A stretch of DNA of 64,000 nucleotides from an uncultured Clostridia bacterium (GCA_934157035.1 CAKPHG010000003.1:8489-72488); one strand, 5' to 3'; counted from the stretch's first letter, positions 22,375 through 45,316 are shown. The notes: generated from the letters alone by a model not told the origin. Numbers and translations are program-made.

Positions 22375-22392
22375 TTAGAAAGGATGATTTTT

Positions 22393-23398
22393 ATGAATAA
22401 GTTAGGAAAACAAACTCTACATTTTGATAAACCTATTACAGTTGTTGAAGTTGCTTCTATCGTAGGTCCAAAAGAAGCACAAGGTCCACTAGCTAGTTAT
22501 TTTGATAAATGCCTAGATGATGAATTCTGGGGTGAAAAAACATGGGAAAAAGCTGAAAGTAAAATAATAAAAGAAACAGTAAATATGGTAATTGCCAAAT
22601 CTAATATTGCATCTTCAGATATCGATTATTGCTTTGCTGGTGATTTACTTAATCAATGTATTTCTTCTTCTTTTGGTTTAAGGGAAATAAACATTCCGTT
22701 TTTTGGTATTTTTGGTGCATGCTCTACTTTTGTAGAGAGTATGTGTTTAGGAAGCGTTTTTTTAGAAGCAAATGCTGCTAAAAATGTACTTTGCGCTGCA
22801 TCTAGTCATTTTTGTAGTGCTGAAAAACAATTTAGATTTCCTTTAGAATTAGGAAACCAACGACCTCCTACTAGTCAGTGGACAGTTACTGGCTCTGGTG
22901 CAACTATTTTATCTACAAATGGAAATGGCCCTTTTGTTACTCATATTACCCCCGGAAAAATTGTAGACATGGGCATTAAAGATGCAAATAACATGGGAGC
23001 TGCAATGGCACCCGCTGCATTTGATACTTTAATTACCCACTTAGAAGATACTGGTAGAAAACCTAGTTATTATGATGCTATTATTACTGGAGATTTAGGA
23101 CATATTGGAAAACAAATTCTTCAAGATCTATGTAAAACAAAAGGTTATAATATTGACGCAAACTATAATGATTGTGGTGTATTAATTTTTGACAAAGAAA
23201 AACAAGATACTCACAGTGGTGGAAGTGGATGTGCTTGTGTACGGAACTGTATTTTCTGGATACTTTTTTAAACAATTAAGAGATAAAAAAATAAATAAAA
23301 TTTTATTAATTGCAACTGGCGCTTTAACTAATGCCACTACTTCTCAACAAGGAGAATCTATTCCTGGTATTGCTCATGCTATTGCAATAGAAAACTAA
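22393..23398 (+). CDS. spoVAD: stage V sporulation protein AD; frame broken at in-frame CGG 23242 (standard pipelines: frameshifted pseudogene)
   Basis: The N-terminal 286 codons end ...HSGGSGCACV CGG. The +1 frame continues GTVFSGYFFKQLRDKKINKILLIATGALTNATTSQQGESIPGIAHAIAIEN, the conserved SpoVAD C-terminus. Track ORFs 22384..23271 and 23189..23398 are the two halves. Confidence 0.85.
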
Positions 23399-31389: not shown

Positions 31390-32254
31390 TTACTGTGTTT
31401 TTACTATTTTTTTGCCCATAGTACCTATTCCGCTTACTCCTTCTTCTCCATCTCTTAATTCATCCTTTATATCTTGTATTGTTAAATATTTTGTATTTTC
31501 TGTTGTTGCTATTCTTTCTGCTATAATTAATGGATCTATAAAATCTATCATTATTCTCCCTGGTGAGGACGCAAAATTTGCACCTTCAGACATTATTGCT
31601 TCATAATAACTTTGACATGCACCAGCAAATATTGCTAAATCTCTTCCTTTTTTACTCCATCTTCTTGCCTCTCTTACTGCATTTATAAAATGTCTTGAAT
31701 TACGATAATTATAAATATCATTAAAGCCTGTATTTTTTTTTATCATTCCATCATGTCCTGTTAAAACTAGTATATCTGGCTTATATTTTTCCAAAAGACT
31801 TGGTATAAATTGTGCCTGTCTATTTTCCGGAATATTTTTTACAATAGCATTTAGTCCCAAACTTTTATAATATCTTATTGATTTTTCACTATATTTTTTA
31901 TCTCCATCTAAGTGCAAAATTTTTCCTGTATATATTACTAAATTACTTCTTTTTTCACTTTTAAAGTTAAACAACTTTTTTGTATTATTAGCACAATTTT
32001 TTGGATTTGATAGACAACTTTTTATGCGATTCATCATCTTTTCGTCTAAGCTTTTAACTCTTGCATCTACTACTCTCTTGTCCATTATTTCTAAATCTTC
32101 TTCTGGACTATCTGCCTCTATTCTTTCTGTTATTCCGCTTTAATATATATATTTTCTTATTTTTACTTGTCTTTATTATTTCTGATATTTGAAATAGTAC
32201 ATCTTTTCCATATGAAATTCTTCCTACTATATCACCTTTTCTTAATTTTTCCAC
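31390..32254 (-). CDS. yabG: sporulation-specific protease YabG; frame broken at in-frame CGG 32137..32135 (standard pipelines: frameshifted pseudogene)
   Basis: GTG 32254 (RBS GAGGTGG) gives MEKLRKGDIVGRISYGKDVLFQISEIIKTSKNKKIYILK, then CGG and a stop 9 codons later. Skipping the C reads GITERIEADSPEEDLEIMDKR..., in frame with track ORF 31390..32085 (LVLTGHDG, FAGACQS). Both parts match YabG. Confidence 0.8.
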
Positions 32255-32372
32255 AATACCACCTCGTATTTTTTATCTAATATATGATATGTCGATTTTT
32301 GTCTAAATGTGAATTATATTGTGTCTTGTTTAATATTTATTAGTAGATTTTTTATATTTCTTTTAATAAAAA

Positions 32373-32410
32373 AATAGAGTTAATATCCTAATTTGAATAT
32401 TAACTCTATT
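32373..32410. terminator. strong terminator immediately after the spoIIID stop codon
   Basis: aatagagttaatat-cctaatttga-atattaactctatt, with T-runs on both sides. Confidence 0.7.
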
Positions 32411-32412
32411 TT

Positions 32413-32574
32413 TTATCCCACTTTATTTTCCTTCAGATGGTCATATTTTAATTTTGTTGCCATACCTCCTCTTATGTGTCTTTCTGCCTTATTTTCATCT
32501 AATATTACTCTTACCTGTGCAGCAAGTACAGGGTTTATCTTTAAAATTCGCTCACTTAAATCTTTGTGTACTGT
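32413..32574 (-). pseudogene. spoIIID: spoIIID 3' segment (C-terminal 52 codons plus stop), separated from its 5' segment by a 10.3-kb element
   Basis: The minus frame reads (T)VHKDLSERILKINPVLAAQVRVILDENKAERHIRGGMATKLKYDHLKENKVG-stop. Compare B. subtilis SpoIIID ...STVHKDLTERL...RHLRGGEATKLKY. It has no start or RBS of its own. Confidence 0.8.
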
Positions 32575-34186
32575 TGTTACTTTTCAGAGCGGTAGAATTT
32601 TCTTTATTTTTTTTATTTTCTTTTTCTTCGACACTTTGGTAAATGTCTTCAAATTTTGTTATTACTGGCTCATTTGTTCCTATTTCATTTAATAGTTTTA
32701 GTCTTACTTCTACATTTGAATCTGAATCAACTTCAATTACATCTATAATTGTTTTTAACATTGCATTTGTTATTGTTTGATTATTTAATATGTCATCTAC
32801 TGTTTTTATTGTTTTATTAAGTTCTTTTTCTAGTACATCTTTTTCTTTTATTTCTGATGTAATTAGTTTTAGTTCTCTTTCCAGTCTTGCAATATCTTCA
32901 TTTAGTGGATTTGTATATTTTTTTAATTCTTGTATATTGATTATTTCATTTTGAAACATTTCCATGTATTTTTGTTTTTTAACTGTTACTTTTTCAATTT
33001 CTTTTAAAAGACTTTCTTCACTTCTTTCATTGTTTTCTCTTAATTTTGTAATCTTTTCAAATTCTTTTTCAACAGCTTTCATAAAATCTTTTTTATTTTT
33101 TATTATACTTTGTAAATAGATTTTTATTGCATTTAAAAGTTCTTCTTCATCAATAACAGTTGTATTTGGACAATGGTTTACTCCCATTGAATTTCTTCCA
33201 CTACATACCCATCTTATATATTCTGGTCCATCAGCTGTATATTTTCTCTTTATTCTTCTAAATGAATAACCACAATGTTTGCAATATATAAGTGTACTAA
33301 ATACATATTCTGTTTTTTCTCTTTTGTTATTTAATTTAAATTCGTTTGATCTTTGCTCTAAAAGTTCTTGTGCTCTGTTAAATAGTTCGTCTGATATTAT
33401 TCTCATTTCTGGTCTTTCAACAACTATCCATTCTTCTTCTGGCAATTCTTTTCTCGTTCCTGTTATAAAGTCTGTTACTTCTGATTTTTTATTTGTTACT
33501 CTTCCTGTATATATTGGATTTTTAAGCATTCTTACAATAGATGTTTGTACCCATTTTGATTTGGTTTTCTTTGTTCTTATTCCTCTATCATTTAAATTCC
33601 ATGCTATTTTGGTTGTTCCAATTCCTTTATATACATAGCTTTCAAATATTTCTTTTACAATTTTTGCTTCTTCTTCATTTATTTTTAAAGTATATCTTTC
33701 ATCTGGAATTTTGTCATATCCAAATACTAGGTTAGGCACTCTTCCTTTTTTAGCTGTGATGTCTTTTCCAAATTTAACTCTTTTAGACATGTTTGCACTT
33801 TCTTGCTGTGCCATTGCTCCTAAAATTGTTAGTATAAATTCAGAGCCACCTTCCATTACTTCACCATTGTTTAAGAAATCAACTTGTACGCCATAAGATT
33901 TTAGCTCTCTTACACTTTGTAATAAATCTACTGTATTTCTTGCAAAACGGCTTACATCTTTTACTACTACTTTATCAAATTTTTTTGCTTTGGCATCTAT
34001 CATCATTTGTTGGAATTGTTTTCTGTGTTTTATTTGCTTTCCTGATATTCCTTCATCTGCATATAGCTTGTACAATTCATAGCCGTTCTTTTTTGTAAAT
34101 TCATTAAAAAATTCTATTTGCTTTTCTAATGAGTCTATTTGTGCTTCTTTTTCAGTTGATACCCTACAATATGCTGCAATTTTCAT
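32552..34186 (-). CDS. large serine recombinase
   Basis: N-terminal resolvase domain MKIAAYCRVSTEKEAQIDSLEKQ with the catalytic Ser. Recombinase and zinc-ribbon region (CKHCGYSF...WVCSG...HCPN) and a coiled-coil C-terminus; 544 aa. The last 7 codons cross the att core into spoIIID sequence. Confidence 0.9.
   Translation of the reverse strand: MKIAAYCRVSTEKEAQIDSLEKQIEFFNEFTKKNGYELYKLYADEGISGKQIKHRKQFQQMMIDAKAKKFDKVVVKDVSRFARNTVDLLQSVRELKSYGVQVDFLNNGEVMEGGSEFILTILGAMAQQESANMSKRVKFGKDITAKKGRVPNLVFGYDKIPDERYTLKINEEEAKIVKEIFESYVYKGIGTTKIAWNLNDRGIRTKKTKSKWVQTSIVRMLKNPIYTGRVTNKKSEVTDFITGTRKELPEEEWIVVERPEMRIISDELFNRAQELLEQRSNEFKLNNKREKTEYVFSTLIYCKHCGYSFRRIKRKYTADGPEYIRWVCSGRNSMGVNHCPNTTVIDEEELLNAIKIYLQSIIKNKKDFMKAVEKEFEKITKLRENNERSEESLLKEIEKVTVKKQKYMEMFQNEIINIQELKKYTNPLNEDIARLERELKLITSEIKEKDVLEKELNKTIKTVDDILNNQTITNAMLKTIIDVIEVDSDSNVEVRLKLLNEIGTNEPVITKFEDIYQSVEEKENKKNKENSTALKSNNSTQRFK
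32560..32574. repeat. att core copy (junction next to recombinase)
   Basis: Plus strand ATCTTTGTGTACTGT, identical to 42824..42838. Confidence 0.75.
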
Positions 34187-34323
34187 AACATCACTACTTT
34201 CTTTTTACTTTTCAGTCACTTCATTTTCGTTCTGTTACATTTTAGCATATCAGTTTCAAAAAAGCAATAAAAAGTACAAAAAAAACCACTCCTGCATTTA
34301 GGAATAGTTTCTTTAATATTTTT

Positions 34324-34352
34324 CAGTGCCAATTTGAGTGCCATTGGCACTG
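34324..34352. terminator. hairpin between the ToxN-like gene and the recombinase gene
   Basis: cagtgccaat-ttgagtgcc-attggcactg. The T-run is on the plus-strand side only, so its function on the minus-strand transcript is uncertain. Confidence 0.35.
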
Positions 34353-34354
34353 TT

Positions 34355-34840
34355 TTATACTTTTTTATTTTCTAATAATATATTTTTCATTTCAATAATA
34401 TCGTAGAAAGGAATATTAGTACCACCTTCAGCAAGTCTAACTACTCTTAAAGATGTTCTAATAATTTCATCTTTTACTACAGTTGGAATTTCAACATCTT
34501 TATTAGAATTTGTATATTTTTCTTCTATGTATTTTTCTGTAGTTGGAAATATGTTTTGTATTAAAAATACAGCTTTTTTACCTAATACATTTCCAAAAAC
34601 AAAGTTATATACTGGTCTATTTCCACTTTTTAATTTCTTATTATCATAAATTTTCTTGTACTTTTCATATTTAGTAGATATTGGAACAAACCATATAATC
34701 TCTTTATTTTTTCTATCTCTAAAACAAAAATAACATGGTCTTTTTGTTCCTCCATCTTTATTCTCCATTAATCCATAATCTTTAAATACATCAAAAAATT
34801 CATCTTTTATAAAATAAAATTTTCCATCTTCTATTACCAT
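34355..34840 (-). CDS. type III toxin-antitoxin system toxin, ToxN/AbiQ family endoribonuclease
   Basis: 161 aa. FYFIKDEFFDVFKD...KRPCYFCFRDRKNKEIIWFVPISTKYEKY parallels the AbiQ/ToxN N-terminal pattern. It is preceded by a promoter, tandem repeats and a terminator, the canonical type III layout. Confidence 0.65.
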   Translation of the reverse strand: MVIEDGKFYFIKDEFFDVFKDYGLMENKDGGTKRPCYFCFRDRKNKEIIWFVPISTKYEKYKKIYDNKKLKSGNRPVYNFVFGNVLGKKAVFLIQNIFPTTEKYIEEKYTNSNKDVEIPTVVKDEIIRTSLRVVRLAEGGTNIPFYDIIEMKNILLENKKV

Positions 34841-34870
34841 TTATGCTACATCTCCTCTTTATGAAAATAT

Positions 34871-34892
34871 GGGATCTATGTTTATAGACCCC
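34871..34892 (-). terminator. attenuating hairpin between antitoxin repeats and toxin gene
   Basis: Minus sense GGGGUCUAU-AAAC-AUAGAUCCC, then AUAUUUUC. Lies between the repeats and the toxin RBS AGAGGAG. Confidence 0.5.
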
Positions 34893-34910
34893 ACATTTTA
34901 CTATAATTAA

Positions 34911-35011
34911 CATTTTTTCACCTGCACATTTGTATCTCGCAAGCAGGGTTGCGGTTCACATTTTTTCACCTATCCATTTAATTCGCAAATAGGGTTGCGA
35001 CTCACATTTTT
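34911..35011 (-). ncRNA. ToxI-like antitoxin RNA: two tandem repeats (48 and 46 nt) plus a 7-nt partial repeat
   Basis: Plus strand CATTTTTTCACCTGCACATTTGTATCTCGCAAGCAGGGTTGCGGTTCA, then CATTTTTTCACCTATCCATTTAATTCGCAAATAGGGTTGCGACTCA, then CATTTTT. No ORF. Lies directly upstream of the ToxN-like gene. Confidence 0.6.
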
Positions 35012-35050
35012 AATTATAGCAGATATTAAATATCTACTACTATTATATTC

Positions 35051-35079
35051 ATTATACAAACTTTTTATTAAAATATCAA
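35051..35079 (-). promoter_or_regulatory. sigma-A type promoter of the type III TA locus
   Basis: Minus sense TTGATA - 17 nt - TATAAT, about 35 nt upstream of the first repeat. Confidence 0.6.
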
Positions 35080-35115
35080 GACTTTTTGCAAAATTTTTTC
35101 AAAGAATTTTTGTCA

Positions 35116-35319
35116 TCATAATTCTAGTTCATCTTCTATTTCGTGAGAATTTTGATAAGCATTTGAATTACTATAATTAAATTTTATCTTTTCATCATTC
35201 TCAGCCAAATTATAAGCAAGAACTCCAGCCATAGCTTGTACAATTTGTTCTTCAGTATTAGGATTAATAAATGTAATATTCAAACTCTTTTTCAAAATTC
35301 TCACCTTCTTCCATTTCAA
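35116..35319 (-). CDS. small hypothetical protein (candidate accessory or directionality factor)
   Basis: 67-aa ORF with uncertain start (TTG codons near GAAGGTGAG). No family recognised. Confidence 0.35.
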   Translation of the reverse strand: MKWKKVRILKKSLNITFINPNTEEQIVQAMAGVLAYNLAENDEKIKFNYSNSNAYQNSHEIEDELEL

Positions 35320-35648
35320 TACTATTATTAAAGTTTTAAAAATATTACTTTTATTTTAAAACTACAAGTGGTATATACCCATATGAGATTTGCCCTCATT
35401 TCACCTTTAGTGAACCGCCCCTTTACATCACGTTAGCCAGACGGAAGTATCATTATATGTCTTGCAGTTTGCTATTCAATTTTCAATGTGCTATAATAGA
35501 AAACAGATATTTAAAATTACTATTTTCTATTTTGTAAATTCATTGTACTCGCCTAAAAATAGCTTGTAAAGAGATTTTACAAAGTCTATAGATAAATTAA
35601 AAATTGAAATATCTATATTCTATTTTTATAAATGGAGGAAACGCTTAT

Positions 35649-36933
35649 ATGATAAGTAATTTTGCAATTAAAAATAATAAAATTATCCTAAAGAACACTC
35701 GGAGAATATTTTGGTGCTTTAGGAAATTTTGAATATAATATTGGCGATAAATTATACGAATTTGCAACAATGAATTATGAAGATTTTGATAAATTAAAAG
35801 TAATGTACACTCAACTAATAGAACTTGTATGTAGAGGTAAGGAAGCTGATACAGAAGATGAAAATATGGATTGTTTTTTTAAGATGTTTCAAATTGTTAG
35901 AGCTTGTTTAGAATTTTCTCCATATACTCATTTCTATACACAAGTTTTGATAGATTTGATAGTTAAAACCTATAATTTTAAAACATATAGAACAGATTTA
36001 TTATTTAAATCTCAAATTGGTGTTTTTATTGAAAATTCAAAATATTCTCCAAAAGAACTTTATGAACAAATAGAAGAAAATCAGTATACTATTGAACTTA
36101 TTTTTTATGAATGGGCTAAGAAAATTGATAAAATTTCAGATAAAAAACATAAAGAATATGTAGAATACTTTGAAACAATAAGAGATTTACTTATAAATAA
36201 CTTTATAGAAAAGAAGGCTGATTTAAAAGAAAGATTAGAATTAATTAGCAATTACTCTAATAATTCTTTAGTTAGAAGCTTAAGTGTTCCAGAAAAATTG
36301 TACTTATATGAATCAAAAAGAGTATTTGACATTCATTATCTTAATACTAACCCAGCACACGCATTATTTTTAGATACAAAATTTAAAACAAAATATATAG
36401 CAGATACTGAATTATCTTTTGAAGAAAGAAGATTAGATGTTGATAAAATAGTAGAAATTATGAAAGAAAAGAATATTGTTGCAGAAGAAGTATATGAAAT
36501 TAAAACTGCAGAAGATCAAATTAGATTTGAGTTATTTAAAGTTATTCAAAACAACTTTGTTATAAATAAATGCGAAAATTGTGGAAGATTATTTATACCC
36601 TCCACCACTAGTAACAATCCTTATCAAAAAGGAAGAAGTGACCAGAAATATTGTAATAACTTATATTTAAATACTGGTAAAACTTGTAAAGAAATTGGTG
36701 CTTTAAATAAACAAAAAGAAAAAGTTGAAAATAGTTCCATTTTACAAGAATATAATCGAGAATATAAAAGGATGCATGGTTTACACTATAAACACACAAA
36801 AGAATTTAAAGAAAAACAATTTAAAGAATGGTCCAAAAAAGCTAGAAAATTAAGAGATAGTTATAATGATGAGCAACTAGAAGATTTTAAAATTGAATTA
36901 AAAAATTTGAGTGATTTATACTGGCAAAAATAG
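35649..36933 (+). CDS. hypothetical protein with C-terminal Cys-cluster; N-terminal 17 codons joined through in-frame CGG 35700 by a +1 shift
   Basis: ATG 35649 after GGAGGAA gives MISNFAIKNNKIILKNT, then CGG and a stop 8 codons later. Skipping the C reads GEYFGALGNFEYNIGDKLYEFATMNYEDF..., in frame with track ORF 35770..36933, whose ATG has no RBS. C-terminus has CENCGRLF...YCNN...CKE. Confidence 0.55.
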
Positions 36934-36978
36934 AAGACAGCAGATAAGTTCTAATAGAACCTACCTGCTGTTTAGCAG

Positions 36979-38610
36979 TTATTTAGATAACAATATCAAT
37001 TTTGACTGTACACAATCTTCGCCAGAAAAGCACACAATTTTTTTCTTTTGAGGATTCAAAATAATAGATAAAAAGTTTCCATACTGTTTTATAAAATCTT
37101 TGTGATTATTAACATCATGAATACTAAATCTAAAATCTGTTTCCTGTGGATGACTATGTGCAAATCCAATAAATTCAACATTTCCAAATGAATCCTGATA
37201 GATCAAATCTGACTTTGGTATATTTTCATTTATGATTGATACTTCGTCCATAATCTGACCGATACAGAAATCATCCATCGTTGCCATATTACCAGCTCGA
37301 TTATATAAAATAGCTGGAACAAGATATTTAACTAAAGAAATGTTGCCAAGATTGTTTCCTACTAAAGCTACTTGTTGTTCATACAAGTTACTAGGATGAC
37401 ATTCTCCATAATGGAAAAAGCCAAATAAATCCTTTGTAGCTTGTGGAGTAAATATAACTGTTTTGGGTGCTTCGAAAGTTGATGGCTTGACTGTAAGATG
37501 TTGCATTGTTCCGTTTTTTAGAACTAACGATGCAATTATATCATCATACGAAACATCAGCAGTTTCTGCCAATTCCACCTTTTCTGTAAAAAACTTTTTG
37601 TAACAAAACTGTGGTGTATTGGTTTCAAAGTCAAAGGTATGAAAACTATCACCTTTGCAGTAATTCCAATGCTCACATTCTTCACATTGCTTAGCTTTTG
37701 TTCTATTAGGATTTCTGTAAAATTCAAATTTATTTTTCCAAACTTCACAAAAGTCATCCTTTAAAACATTGCCTTGTATCAACTCTTTTCTTCTTGGAAT
37801 GTTAGGACATCCAAAAATATCACCATTTGAAAGAACTGATGCAACATGAATTCCAGTGTAGCAAGTAAATTTTTTACCTGTTGGGTCTAAAGTGTTTTCA
37901 GTATTGCCAAAATAATGAGTACAGCTCCATACCACAGGAAGTGGAGAAGTTGAATGCTTTTTAATAAAATCAAAGAGAAAGAAATAATCCTCTTGATCAA
38001 GCATTAAATTTTCATTGTCTTGAGCTCTACCAATAGGGTCAATACCACTAATTCTAAGTGAGTCAATTTCTAGCATACTCAATAAGCGATAAACTTCTGG
38101 TAATTCAGAGATATTGTTTTTAGTTGCAATGAAAGTAACTTGAATGTGTTCAACAAAATCACTCTTTTTAATTTTTTCAATTGCAGAGACAATTCTATCA
38201 AAAGAACCCGGTACATGTCTAAATTCTTCATGAGTTTTTTTCATTCCGTCAAGACTAATTGTAATTGTAGACATATGAGTCTCTTTCATTTTACTAATAA
38301 CATCATCTGTTATTAACATACCATTAGTTACTAATCCCCATTTGAATCCAAGCTTGTCTGCGTAGGCTGTGATTTCAAACAAATCTTTTCTCATAAGGGG
38401 TTCGCCACCTGTGATATTTAGCATAATAGCTTTTGTTCCAAAGTTTTTAGCTACATCATCAAGTACTTTTTTGAAAATTTCAGGAGATAATTCATCCTTT
38501 TTACTAGCCGTGCACCTGCTACCACAATGGTCGCAGAGTGCATTACATCGGCTAGTTACTTCAAAAAAGAGAGTATGCAATGGATATTTGCCATTTGAGT
38601 AATTGTCCAT
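36979..38610 (-). CDS. radical SAM / SPASM-like / JAB(MPN) metallopeptidase fusion protein
   Basis: CNALCDHC (CX3CX2C) and NITGGEPLM near the N-terminus. Cys-rich middle (CYTG...GCPN, CEECEHWNYC, FCY). C-terminal GEC...GFAHSHPQETDFRFSIHD fits the JAMM E/HxH/S..D pattern. RBS AAAGGAGAG. Confidence 0.7.
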   Translation of the reverse strand: MDNYSNGKYPLHTLFFEVTSRCNALCDHCGSRCTASKKDELSPEIFKKVLDDVAKNFGTKAIMLNITGGEPLMRKDLFEITAYADKLGFKWGLVTNGMLITDDVISKMKETHMSTITISLDGMKKTHEEFRHVPGSFDRIVSAIEKIKKSDFVEHIQVTFIATKNNISELPEVYRLLSMLEIDSLRISGIDPIGRAQDNENLMLDQEDYFFLFDFIKKHSTSPLPVVWSCTHYFGNTENTLDPTGKKFTCYTGIHVASVLSNGDIFGCPNIPRRKELIQGNVLKDDFCEVWKNKFEFYRNPNRTKAKQCEECEHWNYCKGDSFHTFDFETNTPQFCYKKFFTEKVELAETADVSYDDIIASLVLKNGTMQHLTVKPSTFEAPKTVIFTPQATKDLFGFFHYGECHPSNLYEQQVALVGNNLGNISLVKYLVPAILYNRAGNMATMDDFCIGQIMDEVSIINENIPKSDLIYQDSFGNVEFIGFAHSHPQETDFRFSIHDVNNHKDFIKQYGNFLSIILNPQKKKIVCFSGEDCVQSKLILLSK

Positions 38611-38629
38611 ATGCTCTCCTTTCGGTTAA

Positions 38630-39055
38630 TCAGTCAAGTTCATGAATTGAACCTGTCGTTACTACGCTGTCATTCTCCGAATACTTTTCAGCTTGATTCA
38701 TTGCTTCTTCAACACTCTTTGCCATCGGACAACCATACAGACATCTCATAGAACCAGGACTTCGATATACTGGTCTAGGTTCAGGTTCTCCAGGAACAAT
38801 GATAATACCACTGTCTTCCTTAATGCCTAAGTCTTCCAGCGACCTATATTCATCTTTGCAAATCTCAACCTTACCATTTTCAGTGTTAAGATACACTTTA
38901 GTAGTGAGATACGAATTGCGATAAGATGAAATAAATCCCAAGTCCCTGAGCTGCGCTTTGAGTTGAACCTCATCGATGTCATACGGAATTGTTACTTGTC
39001 TTGCTTCCCTCCGATTAAAAGTCACAAGAACGTGAATAGTCTTTCTTTCAGCCAT
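38630..39055 (-). CDS. small protein: beta-grasp/ubiquitin-like-looking N-terminal part plus Cys-containing tail (candidate substrate of the radical SAM/JAB enzyme)
   Basis: 141 aa with RBS AAGGAAGG. IHVLVTFN...VTIPYDIDEVQLKAQLRDLGF...GIIIVPGEPEP, then SPGSMRCLYGCPMAKS. Fold assignment is by pattern only. Contains an in-frame CGG at codon 15 (39013..39011) with the zero frame continuing. Confidence 0.5.
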   Translation of the reverse strand: MAERKTIHVLVTFNRREARQVTIPYDIDEVQLKAQLRDLGFISSYRNSYLTTKVYLNTENGKVEICKDEYRSLEDLGIKEDSGIIIVPGEPEPRPVYRSPGSMRCLYGCPMAKSVEEAMNQAEKYSENDSVVTTGSIHELD

Positions 39056-39193
39056 AATAGTACCTTCCTTTCGTTGAATAATATAAAGCTAATTTGTTAC
39101 TAAAAACTACCCTCCTTAAATTTGTTTTCGAGTTTTACTATTTAAGCAATCACTCTATATTCAAAACTTGCAATCTGCAAATTTTATGTTACC

Positions 39194-39222
39194 ATTATAT
39201 ATTATTTTTACTAAAAAATCAA
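39194..39222 (-). promoter_or_regulatory. sigma-A type promoter of the two-gene cassette
   Basis: Minus sense TTGATT - 17 nt - TATAAT, with a leader of about 130 nt before the 141-aa ORF. Confidence 0.55.
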
Positions 39223-39245
39223 TAGAATAATTGCATCAAGCGATT

Positions 39246-40433
39246 TTATATTTCTAAATCCAATTCTTTTTCTCTATCTTCTTTTGCTATTTGTTTTTCT
39301 GCATCTAAATAAGTTCTAGTCTCTTTTTCAAACTTTCTAATTAAATTATCTTCTGCACCCATATCAAACTTTTGACAAATCCATTCTATAAACTTTCCTA
39401 TGCTTTCTTTAAACTTATCTATTACTCTGTGTAAATGGTTATTTTCTTTTTCTAAACTTTTTATTTTGCTTTTATATTTCCACTCTAAGTCGAATTCTTT
39501 TTCTTTATATTCTGACTTAATGTTTTCTACTTGATTATGCATTTCTTCATTATCAGCTATTATTGAATCTCTTTCTTTCTGATATTTTTCCACTTCTTCA
39601 ATTATTTTAGTTTGTCTTGATAATTCTCTGTGTAATTTCAAATTATCTTTGTATAAATTTTGAATAATATCATCTTTAGGTTTTATGATTTCTTCTAAAA
39701 TCTTTTCATCTCTTTTCTTTGATAATCTGTTAATATTAATATCAGTAATATCTGGAGCATCTGGTAATTCTAATTTTATATTTTTCAAAACTTCTTTTGT
39801 TTGTTTAAAATTAGTTATTTTCTTATATTCTTCAACAGAATAATGTTTTCTGTTTGTTTCTTCTTTGGGTAAACCCCTTTGCAAATTGAATCCATTTTCC
39901 AGCATATATTTATAAAAAGCATCTTGTAATTGTCTGTAACTATCTTTTGCTTCCCAAAATTCACTACAAGCAAGTTTATCAATAGAATTTCCTTTTTTAT
40001 CAGTTGTATGAACTACTGGCAAAAAAATCAAGTGCATATGAGGTGTTTGTTCATCTCTATGCACTTTTGCAGATATTATATATTGTTCTCCTAAATCTTT
40101 ATATTCCGTTACAAATTTATATGCAGTTTCGAAAAATCTTTTTGTTTCTTCTTCGTCTATTCTTTCAAAAAAATCATGATCTGATGTTATTATATATTCA
40201 CAAGCTATATTACTTACTTTTTTAATTTGTCCTTTCAAATTATATTTCTCTCTTATTCTATCAAATTCTTTTTCGTAACTATATTGTGGTGATTTTATTG
40301 AATAATTCAAGTATGACTTTTCTTTATCTATATTATCATTTGAATAATTTTTATTTTTTCTTTCATTGTGTCTAAATATTCCTTTCAAATTTTCTCTTTT
40401 ATATTTTGTATTTCTTATTATCGCATAACTCAT
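39246..40433 (-). CDS. MobV-family relaxase (Mob_Pre plasmid recombination enzyme)
   Basis: MSYAIIRNTKYKRENLKGIFRHNERK... and HMHLIFLPV (HxH) motifs, with a coiled-coil C-terminus. Start moved to the ATG after AAGGAGG. Confidence 0.8.
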   Translation of the reverse strand: MSYAIIRNTKYKRENLKGIFRHNERKNKNYSNDNIDKEKSYLNYSIKSPQYSYEKEFDRIREKYNLKGQIKKVSNIACEYIITSDHDFFERIDEEETKRFFETAYKFVTEYKDLGEQYIISAKVHRDEQTPHMHLIFLPVVHTTDKKGNSIDKLACSEFWEAKDSYRQLQDAFYKYMLENGFNLQRGLPKEETNRKHYSVEEYKKITNFKQTKEVLKNIKLELPDAPDITDININRLSKKRDEKILEEIIKPKDDIIQNLYKDNLKLHRELSRQTKIIEEVEKYQKERDSIIADNEEMHNQVENIKSEYKEKEFDLEWKYKSKIKSLEKENNHLHRVIDKFKESIGKFIEWICQKFDMGAEDNLIRKFEKETRTYLDAEKQIAKEDREKELDLEI

Positions 40434-40558
40434 TTTTTCCTCCTTACTTGTGCTAAAACACATCTAAATTTTTATATTATTGCTCATTTTCTAATTTGTG
40501 TTGTAACACAACTACAATACTTTTTTAACGCTATTCGCTAAAAGTATTTGTTGTGGCA

Positions 40559-40575
40559 GGGAAATTATATTTCCC
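40559..40575. other. candidate oriT inverted repeat upstream of the relaxase gene
   Basis: GGGAAAT-TAT-ATTTCCC, a perfect 7-bp inverted repeat. On the mob sense it is flanked by GGGGTGTGGGG, reminiscent of MobV nick regions (GTGTG). Not verified. Confidence 0.35.
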
Positions 40576-40697
40576 CACACCCCTTTGCCAAAAAAATATC
40601 TACATATTTTTTTCGTTTTAGTTAAAATTGCTATTTGCAACTTTAACTAAAAAATCAGCTACATGAGTAGTTCATCTACTTTAGTTGCTGATTTTAT

Positions 40698-41219
40698 TTA
40701 TACAAATACGTTTGCATTTGCATATAATTTAGTTAAGTCAAAGTTTGTATAATCTCTTCCTTTATAGTCCGATTTATATTTCTTATTACTATTCGAAGTA
40801 TTATATATCTTTTTATTTTTTATATTATTTATTATATCTTTGTTATTTTCGCCTATAGGGTATGGTTGTTTTTGACTATCTGGATAGTTATTTTCTTCAA
40901 TACCCTCTTGAACTTTTTGACTATACCTATTGATGTTTTCGACTATAGGCATAATTTGTCTTTGTTCTATTTCTTTACTATCTGTTTTGTATTTTAATTT
41001 AACACTTATATATCCTTTATCTTTTAATGAACTTATTATTTTAGATACTCTTTCATGTGTTACATTTACAATATTTGCAATATATTTATTACTTGCAAAG
41101 CAACTTCCTTTTTCTTCACTCAAATATAAAACCATCGAAAGTATTATTTTCTCCTTATCTGATAAATCTTTATTTAATAAAATTTCTGCTGGTATCCATA
41201 GTCCTTTTAGCTTTTGCAT
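40698..41219 (-). CDS. winged-helix/HTH protein, plasmid replication-initiator or DnaD-like
   Basis: LSDKEKIILSMVLYLSEEKGSCFASNKYIANIVNVTHERVSKIISSLKDKGYI is a typical HTH_36-like segment. Start at the ATG after GGGAGG. Terminator hairpin at 40640..40690. Confidence 0.5.
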   Translation of the reverse strand: MQKLKGLWIPAEILLNKDLSDKEKIILSMVLYLSEEKGSCFASNKYIANIVNVTHERVSKIISSLKDKGYISVKLKYKTDSKEIEQRQIMPIVENINRYSQKVQEGIEENNYPDSQKQPYPIGENNKDIINNIKNKKIYNTSNSNKKYKSDYKGRDYTNFDLTKLYANANVFV

Positions 41220-41354
41220 TGCATAGCCTCCCTTCGTTTTTATTCGCACCACGTTCAATTTTTTGGCTTTTAAATTTGCTTTTAGTATTATTTAAAGTCA
41301 AAAAAATAAAGCCTTAAATTTTCATTTTAAAGCTTTATTACAAATTAATTATTT

Positions 41355-42602
41355 TTATATTTCTAATAATCCTATATTATCCTCAAATATTTTTTTGCAT
41401 TCTTCTTTAGTTATATCTCCTAATTTATATTTTTCATATATTTTTAGTAGAGTTTGTGTTTCTATAATCAACGATCCATATCTTGTTGCTAAATCTTTTT
41501 GATGTTCATGTATTTCTTGTCTTTCCTCTAGAGGTTTATTTCTTTGATGGTTTATAACTAGTAAACCTTTAACTTTTTCTTCTTTTCCTTCTTCATGTAA
41601 TTTATCGAAATAGTTTTGAATATGAACTTCTAGCTGTGAAACATTTTTATTTTGAATTGCAGAACTTAATCCTTTAATTTCACCAACAAAGGTTATATCT
41701 TCTTTTTTTATAAGAAAATCTTCTCTGCCTTCATCAATAAATTTACTTGAATCATACTCTAATATTTCATCTAATATTTCGAGTACAACTTTTACTAATT
41801 CATCTCCATTTGTATATAGGATACTTTTATATTCTAAATTTTTATTTAACTGTTCTTCTAATTTTATATTTTTATCTTTCAGTTTTTGTATTTTTTCATT
41901 ATTACTATTCTTATCCTCTTCCAACTGTTCATCATTATAAAATTTTATATTTTGTATCCATTTAGGCATTTCTTCTCTCTCATTATTTTCTTTACAATAA
42001 TTTGTAATAAACAATTTTAATATATCAATATTTTTTAATACATTTAAAGTTGTTAAACAAATCTTATCTTTCTGTATTGTAGTAATCTTATTACTATTTT
42101 TAGAAAAAGTAATTGCTTTAAATTCTTCTTGATAATTTGTAAAGTTAAAATCAGCGTCTATTTCTTTTTGTTCTATAGTTGTTTTTGTTTTTTCAAACGA
42201 TAATTCTAAATTTTCTACTTTAAATAAGTTCGAACTTATAATTTTTATTAAATTAGATTTGTTATCTTTTAGTTGTATTGAATGAGTATATTTATATCTT
42301 TTACTTCCTCCTACATATTCATAAGTTTGATTGTAATCAAATTCTTCATTTTGTGGCATTACTATAACTATTTTAGAAATACTACTATTTATTATTGCTT
42401 CTTTTATCGTTAACAAATCTTTATAGCAATTAACATTAGTAGGCTGTGTTTCATTATATCTCCATATATATTCATTTGATAAATCAATTATACATAATTC
42501 AAAATCATCTAAAGCTTGTATTTCTCCCAATTTCGAAATCTTATATAATTTATCTGAATATTCGCTATATTTACCCACATCATAAGTTATTATTTGTATC
42601 AT
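41355..42602 (-). CDS. hypothetical protein, coiled-coil centre and C-terminal PD-(D/E)xK-like motif (candidate nuclease/defence protein)
   Basis: 415 aa with RBS AAGGAG. C-terminal EGREDFLIKKEDITFVGEIKG...LLVINHQR resembles a D...E-x-K restriction-endonuclease-fold core. No family recognised with certainty. Confidence 0.45.
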   Translation of the reverse strand: MIQIITYDVGKYSEYSDKLYKISKLGEIQALDDFELCIIDLSNEYIWRYNETQPTNVNCYKDLLTIKEAIINSSISKIVIVMPQNEEFDYNQTYEYVGGSKRYKYTHSIQLKDNKSNLIKIISSNLFKVENLELSFEKTKTTIEQKEIDADFNFTNYQEEFKAITFSKNSNKITTIQKDKICLTTLNVLKNIDILKLFITNYCKENNEREEMPKWIQNIKFYNDEQLEEDKNSNNEKIQKLKDKNIKLEEQLNKNLEYKSILYTNGDELVKVVLEILDEILEYDSSKFIDEGREDFLIKKEDITFVGEIKGLSSAIQNKNVSQLEVHIQNYFDKLHEEGKEEKVKGLLVINHQRNKPLEERQEIHEHQKDLATRYGSLIIETQTLLKIYEKYKLGDITKEECKKIFEDNIGLLEI

Positions 42603-42823
42603 CTATTATCTCCTTCTATAAACTCTTTTTATATGCCCATATTTTACCACATTTTGTCGAAAAAATAAAGCCTAAGATTTTACTCTTAAGGCTTACACAT
42701 TATTTTCTATTTAATTACCAATCCCAATTTCACAACAGGATTTTTCTCTGCTAAGAAAACCTTTTTAATCTCAATACTTTCTGGAATAACTTGTCCAATT
42801 TTTCTACCGTTCTTTAGTGTTAC

Positions 42824-42838
42824 ATCTTTGTGTACTGT
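42824..42838. repeat. att core copy (junction in spoIIID 5' segment)
   Basis: Plus strand ATCTTTGTGTACTGT, identical to 32560..32574 and in the same codon phase of spoIIID. Confidence 0.75.
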
Positions 42839-42946
42839 AGATTTACTAACTCCAAACTTTTTTGCAGCACCTCTTACTGTATCTTTTGAATCTATAATAT
42901 AATGTGCTAACTCCATTGCACGCTCTTCAATTGAGTAACCTTTCAT
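42824..42946 (-). pseudogene. spoIIID: spoIIID 5' segment (41 codons with RBS and HTH); the track ORF 42707..42961 is a chimera running into element DNA
   Basis: The ATG after GGAGG gives MKGYSIEERAMELAHYIIDSKDTVRGAAKKFGVSKSTVHKD. Compare SpoIIID ...ERTIKIGKYIVETKKTVRVIAKEFGVSKSTVHKD. Beyond the att core the ORF continues with 40 unrelated codons. Confidence 0.8.
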
Positions 42947-43079
42947 AAAGAAAACCTCCATATTGAATACTTTTGTTTAAGTGTATTCATATGAAGGTTG
43001 TATTAGAACGTATAAATTTTTTTATATTATATTTTTAATTAGAATCATTTTACAGGAAATTAGCTCTAGTTTTATAATT

Positions 43080-44879
43080 CTATGTTCTTTCAGAGTATGC
43101 TTTGTTCTTCTGATTTATATATTCAAACATACCATCTAAATCACTATTATTAAGTCTTACAACATCTTCTTTTCCTTTTTGTTTAGCATTTTCTATTAAT
43201 TTGTTATATAAATACTCAACAACATCAAATGCAGTATTTCCCTTATTGGTTTTTATTAAGAATATTTTTTTAGCATCTATATCATGATTTGCCTTTCCTT
43301 TCACATCTCTTTGAGGGTTTTTCTCAAACATTTCTCTTAAATTTTCCCTTGAAAATTCTTCCGCAAAGACGTTATTATACTGATCTTCTATTAAAAAATC
43401 TTCTCCTTCTTTGGCATCTACTTTAAAATATATTTCATCTTTAAATCGTTTTTCCATTGCATTATATACGTCTTCTTCGTTTACTTTTTCTGTTTTTGAA
43501 TAATCTACTACATCAAAATATTTTCTATATTCCATTGGAATATCGCATATTCTTAATTTTTTAAATTCATATATAAAAGAATTTTTTATTTCTAGTACTC
43601 CTTTTCCTCCTTTAGACATATATACTCTCGACTGTTCTTCTGATTTCATTTTAGAAGCATCTCCGATTTTAGCCTTTAGTCCTTCGCTAATTATTTGTTT
43701 AAGGTTATCTTTACATGTAAAATGAAAATATGAATTATTTAAATCTATATCACTAATATTCACACTTTCAATGCCTTTCATTTCTCTATGTTTTTTTATA
43801 AATAGATCTTGCAACATTGTGTAATCTTTTTCTTGTACTTTATAAAATTCCTTTACCATATCCTGATTATTTACTAAACTTATTGCAGGAGGAACTATAT
43901 TTTTAGATATTAACATACTATTTAGTAAACACAATGCTGTTCTTTTGTTTCCATCTTCATATGGTTGTATGAACATAAAGTCAGCATATATTTTTGTTAC
44001 AGCTTTAATATATTCTTCAACACTTTGTTTACTATTATATGCACTTTCATATTCTTCTTGTAATTTTGCTATAGCCCCTGGTACTTCTTCGAATGGTATT
44101 GTATGTATTATTGGATTTTCTCTTATTCCCTCATTTGACCCTAGTGTTACAGGCTTTTGTCTATAATCTGTTCCTATTTTAGTCATTCCTATTTGACTTA
44201 CCATTTCACTTCTAAACAGCTTGCAACTTTCTTCAATATTAATTGGTCCTTGGTCTTTCTTTTTAACAAATGGAATTAAAGTCATTCTTGATATGTCTTC
44301 TATTTCTTTTATATTTTGGTATTCTGCTACACCTTTCTCTAATGTTCTATGAACTTTATCATGTGCTATAAAAGGATCTTTAGGATTTTCGGATATTGTC
44401 TTTCTTATCATTTCTCTTACTTTTTTTATATAGGAATCTTCTAACATGTTACTTTTTTCTATTTTTTTATAATGAAATGATTTTATAAATTTCTTTATTA
44501 TATTTTTTTCTTCTTCATACTTATGCTTAAATTCTTCCTCTAAATAAATTGAATCTAAGCTGATTCCGTTATGCATACTGCCATAAGCAAATTCTTTCCA
44601 TTCTTCATATTCCTCATTTGATGTTATATTTAATGAATTTCCAAATAAGGCTTCTATTGTACTTTCATCAAATTTTATATTGCTATCTAAATCAATTTGT
44701 CTATGAATACTTTCTGACTCTTTTCTGTATTCTGGAATTGAATCAAAATTAGTTTCCATATATTTATGTATCATTAACATTTTATCAATATCCATTTGAG
44801 CTATAAGTATTCTTTTTATATATTCTTGTATAGGATTAAAGCTTAATTTTTGTGATAAATTCTTTCCATTAGAAAACAT
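43080..44879 (-). CDS. Fic/Doc (Fido) domain protein with a large C-terminal extension
   Basis: FMFIQPYEDGNKRTALCLLNSML matches the Doc-type variant of the Fic motif (HxFxDxNKR) but has Gln where His is expected; 599 aa. The upstream in-frame extension has an RBS but no canonical start codon. Confidence 0.7.
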   Translation of the reverse strand: MFSNGKNLSQKLSFNPIQEYIKRILIAQMDIDKMLMIHKYMETNFDSIPEYRKESESIHRQIDLDSNIKFDESTIEALFGNSLNITSNEEYEEWKEFAYGSMHNGISLDSIYLEEEFKHKYEEEKNIIKKFIKSFHYKKIEKSNMLEDSYIKKVREMIRKTISENPKDPFIAHDKVHRTLEKGVAEYQNIKEIEDISRMTLIPFVKKKDQGPINIEESCKLFRSEMVSQIGMTKIGTDYRQKPVTLGSNEGIRENPIIHTIPFEEVPGAIAKLQEEYESAYNSKQSVEEYIKAVTKIYADFMFIQPYEDGNKRTALCLLNSMLISKNIVPPAISLVNNQDMVKEFYKVQEKDYTMLQDLFIKKHREMKGIESVNISDIDLNNSYFHFTCKDNLKQIISEGLKAKIGDASKMKSEEQSRVYMSKGGKGVLEIKNSFIYEFKKLRICDIPMEYRKYFDVVDYSKTEKVNEEDVYNAMEKRFKDEIYFKVDAKEGEDFLIEDQYNNVFAEEFSRENLREMFEKNPQRDVKGKANHDIDAKKIFLIKTNKGNTAFDVVEYLYNKLIENAKQKGKEDVVRLNNSDLDGMFEYINQKNKAYSERT

Positions 44880-45142
44880 TTCTTTAACTGCTTCTATTCC
44901 TTTTTCTTCAATATTTATATATATTTTTTCTGCTGAATCTTTTACATTTTCTATTTCTATACTACCTCACCTCTTTTGTTTCACACCTATATATCTTTAG
45001 CTTGTTTTCTAAATAATTAAAAACTATTTTTATTATACACTATTAGATTATTTTTTCAAGTTCATAAATTTTTAATTTCTACTTTTCTTCTTAAAGTATA
45101 TTTTTTCATTCTTTGGAAATAATTTATTTAGGTGGTGATAAT

Positions 45143-45316
45143 ATGACAAGTAAAGAGCTTTTATATGTTGAAGATGCTTTAGGGCATGAATGTTATATGA
45201 AAACATGTGCTAAAAAAACTTCTTCTCAATTAACAGATCTTACTCTTTCTACTTATGTAGCAGAGTTAGAGCAAAAGCATACTGATTTATTTAACAAATT
45301 TTTAAATTTATTATAG
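45143..45316 (+). CDS. small protein co-transcribed with the CotF-like gene
   Basis: 57 aa, MTSKELLYVEDALGHE..., with RBS AGGTGG. The next gene starts 10 nt downstream. Confidence 0.4.
   Translation: MTSKELLYVEDALGHECYMKTCAKKTSSQLTDLTLSTYVAELEQKHTDLFNKFLNLL

Follow-up and report, generated by a model that had tools for sequence, protein, structure and literature searches.

The window analysed here, a stretch of 64,000 nucleotides (nt) from an uncultured Clostridia bacterium (GCA_934157035.1 CAKPHG010000003.1:8489-72488), carries at positions 36979-39222 a cassette of two genes encoding a small protein of 141 amino acids (aa) and an enzyme of 543 aa. An earlier note on this DNA had described the pair as a radical S-adenosylmethionine (SAM)/SPASM/JAB fusion enzyme with a ubiquitin-like companion, and as a candidate undescribed system. 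Both open reading frames (ORFs) are located on the minus strand, head to tail, the enzyme ORF 19 nt downstream of the small one. Together with their flanking signals they form a unit of promoter, two genes and terminator of ~2.3 kb:

39194..39222, minus strand: σ70-type promoter-like site TTGATT-17-TATAAT (10/12 matches), ~135 nt 5' of the small gene
38630..39055, minus strand: small gene, 141 aa (ORF call)
36979..38610, minus strand: enzyme gene, 543 aa (ORF call)
36937..36971, minus strand: intrinsic terminator-like hairpin with a 16-bp stem and then a T-run, directly 3' of the enzyme stop codon

The boundaries of both genes agree with those of the earlier note, and the promoter that it had ascribed to the pair was located at 39222..39194 (minus strand); promoter-like matches are commonplace in such AT-rich DNA (19 observed versus 13 expected). 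The suggestion that the cassette is G+C-richer and looks foreign proved correct, with a G+C content of 0.32-0.36 against ~0.25 in the surroundings. This contrast persists at synonymous sites, since the G+C content of third codon positions is raised in both genes (0.23 and 0.32 versus 0.10-0.18 in the 24 other long ORFs of the window). The genes are not chance ORFs, because both proteins belong to large families of homologues and selection on the small gene is purifying over its entire length (ratio of non-synonymous to synonymous substitution rates, Ka/Ks, of 0.16). A riboswitch or other structured leader was rejected: the 5' leader matched no Rfam family and showed no unusual fold (fold z-score −1.2).

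In the 543-aa enzyme, a radical SAM core is fused to a SPASM domain and this in turn to a JAB/MPN+ metallopeptidase at the C-terminus:

37936..38574, minus strand: radical SAM core, enzyme residues 13-225 (PF04055, invariant residues, Foldseek)
37582..37935, minus strand: SPASM auxiliary-cluster domain, residues 226-343 (PF13186, seven invariant Cys)
37462..37581, minus strand: linker, residues 344-383, then a helix and a strand before the JAB core (AlphaFold2 model)
36982..37461, minus strand: JAB/MPN+ (JAMM) domain, residues 384-543 (E411, H485-x-H487, S496-x2-D499; profile searches)

The Pfam model Radical_SAM (PF04055) matched residues 17-177 with an E-value of 1.7e-21 (77.5 bits, cut-off 29.5) and the SPASM model (PF13186) residues 250-312 with 1.8e-5 (25.3 bits, cut-off 21.5). 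In an alignment of 34 full-length homologues with 42-93% identity, the three Cys of the cluster motif CNALCDHC (C22-x3-C26-x2-C29) and the GGEPL motif are invariant, as are seven Cys of the SPASM region (C230, C250, C268, C309, C312, C318 and C336). The spacing of the latter is C250-x12-G-x4-C268 and C309-x2-C312-x5-C318, with C230 and C336 in addition. Although Ser322 replaces the fourth Cys of the CX2CX5CX3C block, the PF13186 score and the invariant Cys place the enzyme in the SPASM subgroup. The AlphaFold2 model had a predicted local distance difference test score (pLDDT) of 88 and a predicted TM-score of 0.83; pLDDT falls below 50 at residues 344-350, and helix H355-366 and strand E370-374 follow. 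A Foldseek search with the whole model, which was dominated by the radical SAM part, found SkfB, CteB, SuiB, the anaerobic sulfatase-maturing enzyme (anSME) and PqqE with E-values of 1e-18 to 1e-13. The top NCBIfam model was TIGR04133 (residues 8-339, 1.2e-83, 281 bits, curated cut-off 425), followed by models of heme (AhbD, NirJ), mycofactocin and maturase families, the last acting on peptides that are made by ribosomes and modified after translation (RiPPs); MftC and PqqE were among the better matches of the radical SAM part. An identity as viperin (pVip) was rejected: the NCBIfam viperin model gave 77.7 bits against a cut-off of 180 and ranked under 20 other radical SAM families, the enzyme has a SPASM domain, and the PADLOC pVip matches stem from a general likeness among radical SAM enzymes.

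In the C-terminal 190 residues, Y410-E411, G482, H485, H487, S496, D499 and N519-P520 are invariant in the same 34 homologues, and the pattern HxHx(7-10)SxxD is kept in 58/58 full-length members of the enzyme family. The JAB motif proposed in the earlier note thus stood in its HxH, Ser and Asp, but its Glu had to be reassigned: the conserved JAMM Glu is E411 of 'YEQQ', while the Glu of 'GEC' varies. The PADLOC JAB model matched the enzyme at 0.003, Prok-JAB weakly matched 18/20 family members, and the window enzyme alone stays under the Pfam cut-off for JAB (15.9 versus 25). A profile of the C-terminal domain run against 177,635 PDB sequences returned JAMM/MPN proteins only (21 chains). A broader profile including non-fused relatives gave 46 matches at E <= 0.01, all of them catalytic MPN+ deubiquitinases, the best an Rpn11-like protein (7e-9), others including AMSH-LP, Sst2, RPN11, CSN5 and BRCC36. 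The order of strands and helices in residues 384-542 of the model is MPN-like. On these profiles and conserved positions the C-terminal domain is assigned as a JAB metallopeptidase with all of its predicted catalytic residues intact. The three-part fusion is consequently confirmed by Pfam, invariant residues, PDB-sequence profiles and the AlphaFold2 model.

The small protein consists of a globular domain, a linker and a conserved C-terminal end, which contains a short tag:

38786..39055, minus strand: ubiquitin-like beta-grasp domain, codons 1-90 (AlphaFold2 and Foldseek)
38744..38785, minus strand: Pro/Glu-rich flexible linker EPEPRPVYRSPGSM, codons 91-104 (low pLDDT, variable length and sequence)
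38717..38743, minus strand: tag core C105-L-Y-G-C-P-M-A-K113 (invariant residues; proposed radical SAM/JAB site)
38630..38716, minus strand: acidic helical tail SVEEAMNQAEKYSENDSVVTTGSIHELD and stop codon (conserved residues; proposed removable follower or docking segment)

No Pfam, NCBIfam or PADLOC model matched this protein, and no NCBIfam model matched the other small partners described below. The AlphaFold2 model of residues 1-90 (pLDDT ~80) has the order beta-beta-alpha-beta-beta-beta, and the best listed of its Foldseek matches in the PDB (80 at E <= 0.001) were nearly all ubiquitin, ubiquitin-like proteins (Ubls) or UBX domains, with E-values from 1e-5 and TM-scores up to 0.83. The predicted structure therefore bears out the ubiquitin/beta-grasp-like character which had been read from the sequence pattern: the small protein has, according to the model, a ubiquitin-like fold. 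Homologues numbered 131. Among those aligned, LYGCPM (L106-M111) is invariant, the preceding C105 is not, and S114, V115, A122, E123, Y125, S130 and G135 are conserved in the tail. The tail region is disordered in the model, with a helix at 115-122.

Comparison of the small gene with 11 relatives gave Ka/Ks values of 0.14 for the fold, 0.58 for the linker (codons 91-104) and 0.155 for codons 105-141; both the ubiquitin fold and the tag plus tail are under purifying selection. This bears on the proposal that the ribosome shifts frame at the CGG in codon 15, which would yield a 20-aa peptide. The codon is real, and CGG is almost absent from the long ORFs of the window (3 in ~11,700 codons); no tRNA genes lie within the window. 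The two other CGG codons are located within 22384..23271 and 48611..49537. However, the codons past 20 are strongly conserved (Ka/Ks 0.14-0.16), and the selection on fold and tail therefore indicates that the whole frame is translated, so that the frameshift idea is unsupported.

The partner genes were then compared across 61 loci (the window, 4 metagenomic loci and 56 loci of GTDB species genomes), all from uncultured gut or rumen Clostridia, with 58 enzyme genes of full length. At 56/61 loci the enzyme gene had at least one YGCP-encoding gene no more than 2 kb away on its own strand, with one to six such genes per locus (six in tandem at two loci). The tetrapeptide occurred 88 times in the 63,640 aa of ORFs situated up to 2 kb from the enzyme gene and on its strand, versus twice in 294,137 aa elsewhere. 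Y107, G108, C109 and P110 are invariant in all of the 87 distinct partner proteins, and Gly108 is the sole Gly conserved across the substrates. The tag is placed near the C-terminus as [C]x-Y-G-C-P-x-[S/A]-K, and the consensus of the 87 partners reads [C/D]-[Y/L/H]-Y-G-C-P-[N/M]-[S/A]-K-[K/R]-x-x-K-L-[Q/N]-L-x-K-K-L-Y-[R/K]-end. The tail past the Gly comprises 18 residues in most small partners, 29-36 in the ubiquitin-fold class and 33 in the window protein. The combination of enzyme and tagged gene is retained from 99% down to ~36% enzyme identity. In public data, the listed matches of a profile of the small class included at least 504 distinct proteins, 47-83 aa long and without a name. In the rumen clade the partner genes lie 3' of the enzyme gene rather than 5'.

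The N-terminal parts of the partners fall into four classes: (i) the ubiquitin fold, in the window clade of 17 loci; (ii) a zinc ribbon plus a domain; (iii) a lipoprotein signal or membrane anchor; and (iv) a Trp/Phe-rich amphipathic helix followed by a Pro/Asp linker. A ubiquitin-like partner (hhalign probability 90%) is also present in a second clade, whose enzyme identity is 36%. The window substrate is soluble, and most substrates of the family are membrane-directed peptides without a ubiquitin fold. Paralogous substrates have the tail in common and differ in the N-terminal part, and the zinc-ribbon substrates of locus L007 align with the window small protein over the tag only. Since the N-terminal parts vary widely and the tag is invariant across the family, the partner is defined by the tag, not by the ubiquitin fold. 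The pair is thus conserved as an enzyme-substrate-like unit, as had been supposed, with the tag in place of the fold as its constant feature. The tails of soluble partners are acidic (charge −4 to −8) and those of membrane-directed partners basic (+4 to +8), which may reflect a need for keeping the tag in the cytoplasm. When the flanking ORFs of the 61 loci were all clustered, no further conserved gene emerged. As regards a dedicated exporter, ABC genes were present at 6 loci, never adjoining the cassette, several on the opposite strand and not mutual orthologues. In one clade (L009, 5813..7271), the tagged genes are preceded by a 247-aa radical SAM protein (Fer4_12 and Radical_SAM, activase-like) and a 243-aa Cys-rich membrane protein, which may be clade-specific added components.

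The nearest named family to the radical SAM part is TIGR04133, an NCBIfam hypothetical equivalog paired with a 'radical SAM-associated putative lipoprotein'. True TIGR04133 genes (Parabacteroides, Treponema) are preceded by a gene so annotated, and these lipoproteins read SCGENGEIPCEYGSPHANF and LTSCYGMPENYY (PCEYGSPHA and SCYGMPEN). The two systems have in common a partner gene immediately upstream and the core motif [C]x-Y-G-x-P-x-[A/N]; the Y-G-x-P core is thus common to the wider clade. Nevertheless, the score below the curated cut-off makes the window enzyme a representative of a related clade, not a member. TIGR04133 proteins are without the JAB domain to which the window enzyme is fused. 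Their partners are larger proteins and carry the motif N-terminally, right after the lipoprotein signal, whereas in the window partner, which is soluble and has a ubiquitin fold, it lies close to the C-terminus. The residue after the Gly is Ser or Met in the TIGR04133 partners and Cys in the Clostridial family. TIGR04133 systems occur in Bacteroidota and Spirochaetota, the JAB fusions in Clostridia; the Cys after the Gly and the JAB fusion are specific to the Clostridial clade. The score, the additional domain and the different partner therefore exclude an assignment to TIGR04133.

The ancestry of the peptidase points in another direction. An exhaustive HMMER search of 1.84 billion representative proteins, for which the JAB part served as query, yielded 65 clusters only. 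In the non-fused relatives (nearest E 1e-16) the JAB domain is N-terminal, and several reach the Pfam JAB cut-off. The genomic context, read for two of them (P0257 and P0258), is an operon in which a gene for a 93-99-aa protein is accompanied by those for an E1 (ThiF type), an E2 (UQ_con type) and the JAB protein. The Ubls in these operons end in ..VPDG-IVA and ..RPDG-MWDA, i.e. in a Gly with a short removable tail. Bil operons are defined by these same components, namely the Ubl BilA, the E2 BilB, the JAB protein BilC and the E1 BilD (PMC11601603). Given these relatives in Ubl-E1-E2-JAB operons, the fused JAB descends from peptidases which trim or deconjugate Ubls after Gly. Such operons have varied neighbours: that of L073 (1..6212) is flanked by a 1528-aa multi-AAA-domain protein, and those of L074 (2937..8706) and L075 (1596..8242) by a 743-aa Ser/Thr kinase and a Fer4_12-like gene, which in L075 are followed by an AAA/ClpB-like gene; in L074 the gene located upstream of that for the Ubl encodes a protein with a transglutaminase core.

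The interpretation to which we give somewhat more than even weight is that the cassette is a self-contained mobile module for the maturation of a protein or peptide, composed of a bifunctional enzyme and its tagged substrate, in which the radical SAM part modifies YGCP and the JAB part cuts between Gly and Cys. The tail and tag would dock on the enzyme, and the radical SAM/SPASM domain would abstract a hydrogen at or beside Y-G-C-P and install a modification, for which a cyclophane-type C-C link of Tyr to residue i+2, a Cys thioether, epimerisation, or oxidation of Gly or Cys are the candidates. The JAB domain would hydrolyse Gly108|Cys109, as JAB peptidases do past the C-terminal Gly of Ubls, releasing the 33-residue tail and leaving the ubiquitin-fold protein with a modified end ...C-L-Y-G. 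Cleavage between Gly and Cys has a precedent in Mec+ and QbsD. The JAB ancestry and the fact that Gly108 is the one universally conserved Gly are the reasons for placing the cut here, and the JAB domain probably cuts at this bond. The N-terminal portion would then be the product and the conserved tail a follower peptide, following the logic of RiPPs, in which the recognition part is conserved and the product part variable. The modification and the cleavage of the tag are themselves what we infer.

The chemistry may not centre on Cys. A radical-SAM-installed modification or crosslink had been put forward for the small protein, with sacti- and ranthipeptides as background; C105 is not invariant and the JAB-less sisters have Ser or Met after the Gly; a thioether of the sacti- or ranthipeptide type is therefore just one option, although it stays among the candidates. 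Universal Tyr, Gly and Pro with Cys, Ser or Met after the Gly would fit a triceptide-type cyclophane or a Tyr/Gly chemistry at least as well. An identity of the enzyme as anSME was rejected, since the tag C-P-x-[S/A]-K has Pro right after Cys, unlike the C/S-x-P-x-R motif.

Several observations weigh against this maturation module. Among the five loci without a tagged gene, L026 and L066 are cut by the contig end and L069 has a weak match, and near the enzyme genes of L032 (4897..6495) and L060 (4612..6624) a gene with a YG.P tag could not be detected. With 670 aa and an alignment to the window enzyme over residues 49-218 only, the enzyme of L060 is atypical, and its architecture may differ. 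No signal of charge complementarity between tail and enzyme was found (r = 0.17). A PqqD-like RiPP recognition element was detected by Pfam neither in the enzyme, whose radical SAM motif begins already at residue 22 and thus leaves it without such an element, nor as a conserved neighbour at the 61 loci. The chemistry may differ between clades, because the residue after the Gly is not Cys in the JAB-less sisters. Lastly, the conserved tail of fixed length could itself be the product. In that case, which we consider unlikely, a released C-terminal peptide CP-x-[S/A]-K... would be the product and the N-terminal part its carrier or leader; the radical SAM domain would modify the Cys-Pro end and the JAB domain act as leader peptidase. 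The tail is indeed the best conserved and most length-constrained part of the substrates, 18 residues in most small ones with the ending L-Y-R/K, it is under strong purifying selection, and Cys109 and Pro110 are invariant. However, the N-terminal parts look functional (ubiquitin fold, lipoprotein signals, amphipathic helices) and are selected, with a Ka/Ks of 0.14 for the fold. The tails differ radically by class, acidic helix versus basic, which is a better fit to a docking segment, and no exporter or immunity gene is conserved at the 61 loci.

The proposed maturation module shares with Bil and with the Mec+/CysO and QbsD/QbsE pairs a homologous JAB domain and a ubiquitin-fold partner with a C-terminal extension past Gly. 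It differs from the Bil type in lacking E1 and E2, in the fusion of JAB to a radical SAM enzyme and in most of its substrates having no ubiquitin fold. In addition, the window Gly sits 19 residues past the ubiquitin fold, while the Gly of Bil-type Ubls is at the end of the fold, and in sequence the window Ubl is not significantly similar to those encoded by the Bil-like operons. In agreement with the earlier expectation that E1 and E2 are missing, Pfam found neither ThiF nor UQ_con among the window neighbours, and the 61 loci have no third conserved gene. Without E1 and E2 the cassette is not a Bil, Bub or CBASS (Cap2/Cap3) system.

The same set of facts can be read as activation or conjugation of a Ubl free of E1 and E2. 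The JAB domain would expose ...LYG and the radical SAM domain would make a reactive or cross-linked C-terminus, attaching the protein or the membrane peptides to a target. The window substrate is a ubiquitin-fold protein, a ubiquitin-like substrate is present in the clade at 36% enzyme identity too, the JAB domain comes from the clade of Ubl-E1-E2-JAB operons in the absence of a nearby E1 or E2, and an aromatic residue followed by Gly resembles the C-termini of the Atg8/Atg12 type. Nevertheless, most substrates lack the ubiquitin fold, no target or ligase-like gene is conserved, and we know of no radical SAM enzyme that drives protein conjugation. In the TIGR04133 sisters, conjugation via a C-terminal Gly is impossible because the motif lies at the N-terminus of the lipoprotein. 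We therefore hold conjugation to be quite improbable. A related possibility, also doubtful but less so, is an E1/E2-independent radical-SAM route maturing or activating the ubiquitin-fold protein and the tagged membrane peptides, in which a JAB domain of Bil-like descent would expose the aromatic-Gly end, made cross-linked or reactive for attachment or assembly.

Regarded as a peptide-maturation system, the cassette has the fold and cluster architecture of the radical SAM/SPASM maturases (SkfB, CteB, SuiB, PapB, MftC, PqqE, anSME and the triceptide cyclophane synthases). Like RiPP and cofactor maturases, it has adjacent, often multiplied small substrate genes and a short motif with a Cys and an aromatic residue. 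Precursor genes are multiplied in cofactor pathways as well, pqqA being often present in several copies. This makes conceivable, but in our view very unlikely, a small molecule or cofactor derived from the peptide by the logic of pyrroloquinoline quinone or mycofactocin, with a cross-link or decarboxylation in Y-G-C and excision of the product by peptidases. It would agree with a universal core of only four residues and with MftC and PqqE being among the better NCBIfam matches. Yet the 61 loci have in common no enzyme that would consume the product, no second peptidase and no transporter, N-terminal modules as well as tails are kept within clades, and JAB would make only one of the two cuts needed.

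The RiPP maturases differ from the window enzyme in several respects. It has no PqqD-like element, its recognition part is C-terminal (a follower), JAB is fused to it, and some of its substrates are folded (ubiquitin-like, zinc ribbon). Proteases of the JAB type do not appear in a 2023 review on the leader peptidases of RiPPs (PMC10885120). As there is no recognition element and the Cys thioether is only one candidate chemistry, the cassette was not placed among the sacti- and ranthipeptide systems. The databases had no name for either cassette protein, and the literature searched, which included the main surveys of prokaryotic ubiquitin-like systems and the review of RiPP leader peptidases but left most subscription journals outside, so that absence is not proven, described no radical SAM-JAB fusion or YGCP motif. 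The cassette would function in the manner of a radical SAM/SPASM system for peptide maturation to which a ubiquitin-tail peptidase has been joined, and no described system matches it. The same had been supposed from the start, and comparison with TIGR04133, Bil/Bub/CBASS, sacti- and ranthipeptide systems, anSME and viperin has now yielded membership in none of them.

The window is chromosomal DNA of a spore former (SipL, YunB, YabG, PFL), in which the cassette lies inside an integrated mobilisable element of ~13 kb (~32400..45200). Besides the cassette, the element carries:

32552..34186: large serine recombinase
34355..34840: 161-aa ORF with a weak PADLOC PDC-M01B match
35770..36933: DUF6076 protein
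39246..40463: MobV/Pre relaxase
40698..41258: DnaD-like helix-turn-helix protein
41355..42602: 415-aa protein of no family
43080..44879: 599-aa Fic-domain protein

Only one other locus (L014) shares the wider element (32,679-41,340 at 82-87% identity). DNA similarity to 14 other loci of the ubiquitin-fold class is restricted to ~36,930-39,230, i.e. the promoter, the two genes and the terminator, with edges at ~39,117-39,232 on the promoter side and ~36,915-36,978 on the terminator side. The G+C content of the cassette exceeded that of both flanks at 16/16 loci, and in another species the pair stands alone between pheT and a surface-protein gene. These boundaries indicate that the cassette itself is a unit of horizontal transfer, which accords with its foreign base composition. 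Its DNA had no match among the PLSDB plasmids and INPHARED phages.

Location in a mobile element raises the question of anti-phage defence or another conflict function as element cargo. This concerns the role of the cassette and is compatible with the proposed maturation mechanism. The cassette moves as a unit in an element with serine recombinase, MobV relaxase and Fic protein, and its JAB relatives occur in Bil-like operons, a kind shown to be active in phage defence (PMC11601603). On the other hand, PADLOC recognized no system in the cassette beyond generic radical SAM similarity and a weak JAB match, and no effector was found. The surroundings are in most cases ordinary genes of the chromosome, for example pheST or genes of cell division, and among 2.9 million viral contigs the enzyme occurred once, at a contig end. 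The survey of neighbourhoods for enrichment in defence islands, which had been proposed earlier, found no conserved neighbour, and the idea was not supported; we judge a defence role to be a slim prospect.

Two further features of the window were recorded outside the element. The sporulation peptidase gene yabG (U57) is seemingly frameshifted, with the N-terminal piece KGDIVGRISYGKDVLFQISEII at 32100..32260 (minus strand) contiguous with the ORF 31390..32085 in a different frame. Its splitting by the mobile element is ruled out by this contiguity, and the frame break could be a sequencing error or a pseudogene. At 46488..48511 (plus strand), an unrelated 428-aa radical SAM protein with an HHH_3 motif is encoded by an ORF which overlaps the start of a 252-aa DUF4130 ORF; the pair looks conserved.

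With the cassette, a sizeable family of enzymes and substrates without a name is defined in Clostridia of the gut and rumen. Its recognition tag is sharp and easily mutated, and the two-gene size of 2.3 kb allows the chemistry to be tested directly. Three fields that are mostly dealt with apart are brought together here. For the TIGR04133/lipoprotein systems of Bacteroidota, which are uncharacterised, the YGxP motif is a candidate target site. The occurrence of a ubiquitin-fold protein beside a JAB partner, with E1 and E2 absent, raises the question of radical SAM action on the tail of a Ubl. If the proposed mechanism is true, JAB peptidases would join the proteases of RiPP-like maturation.

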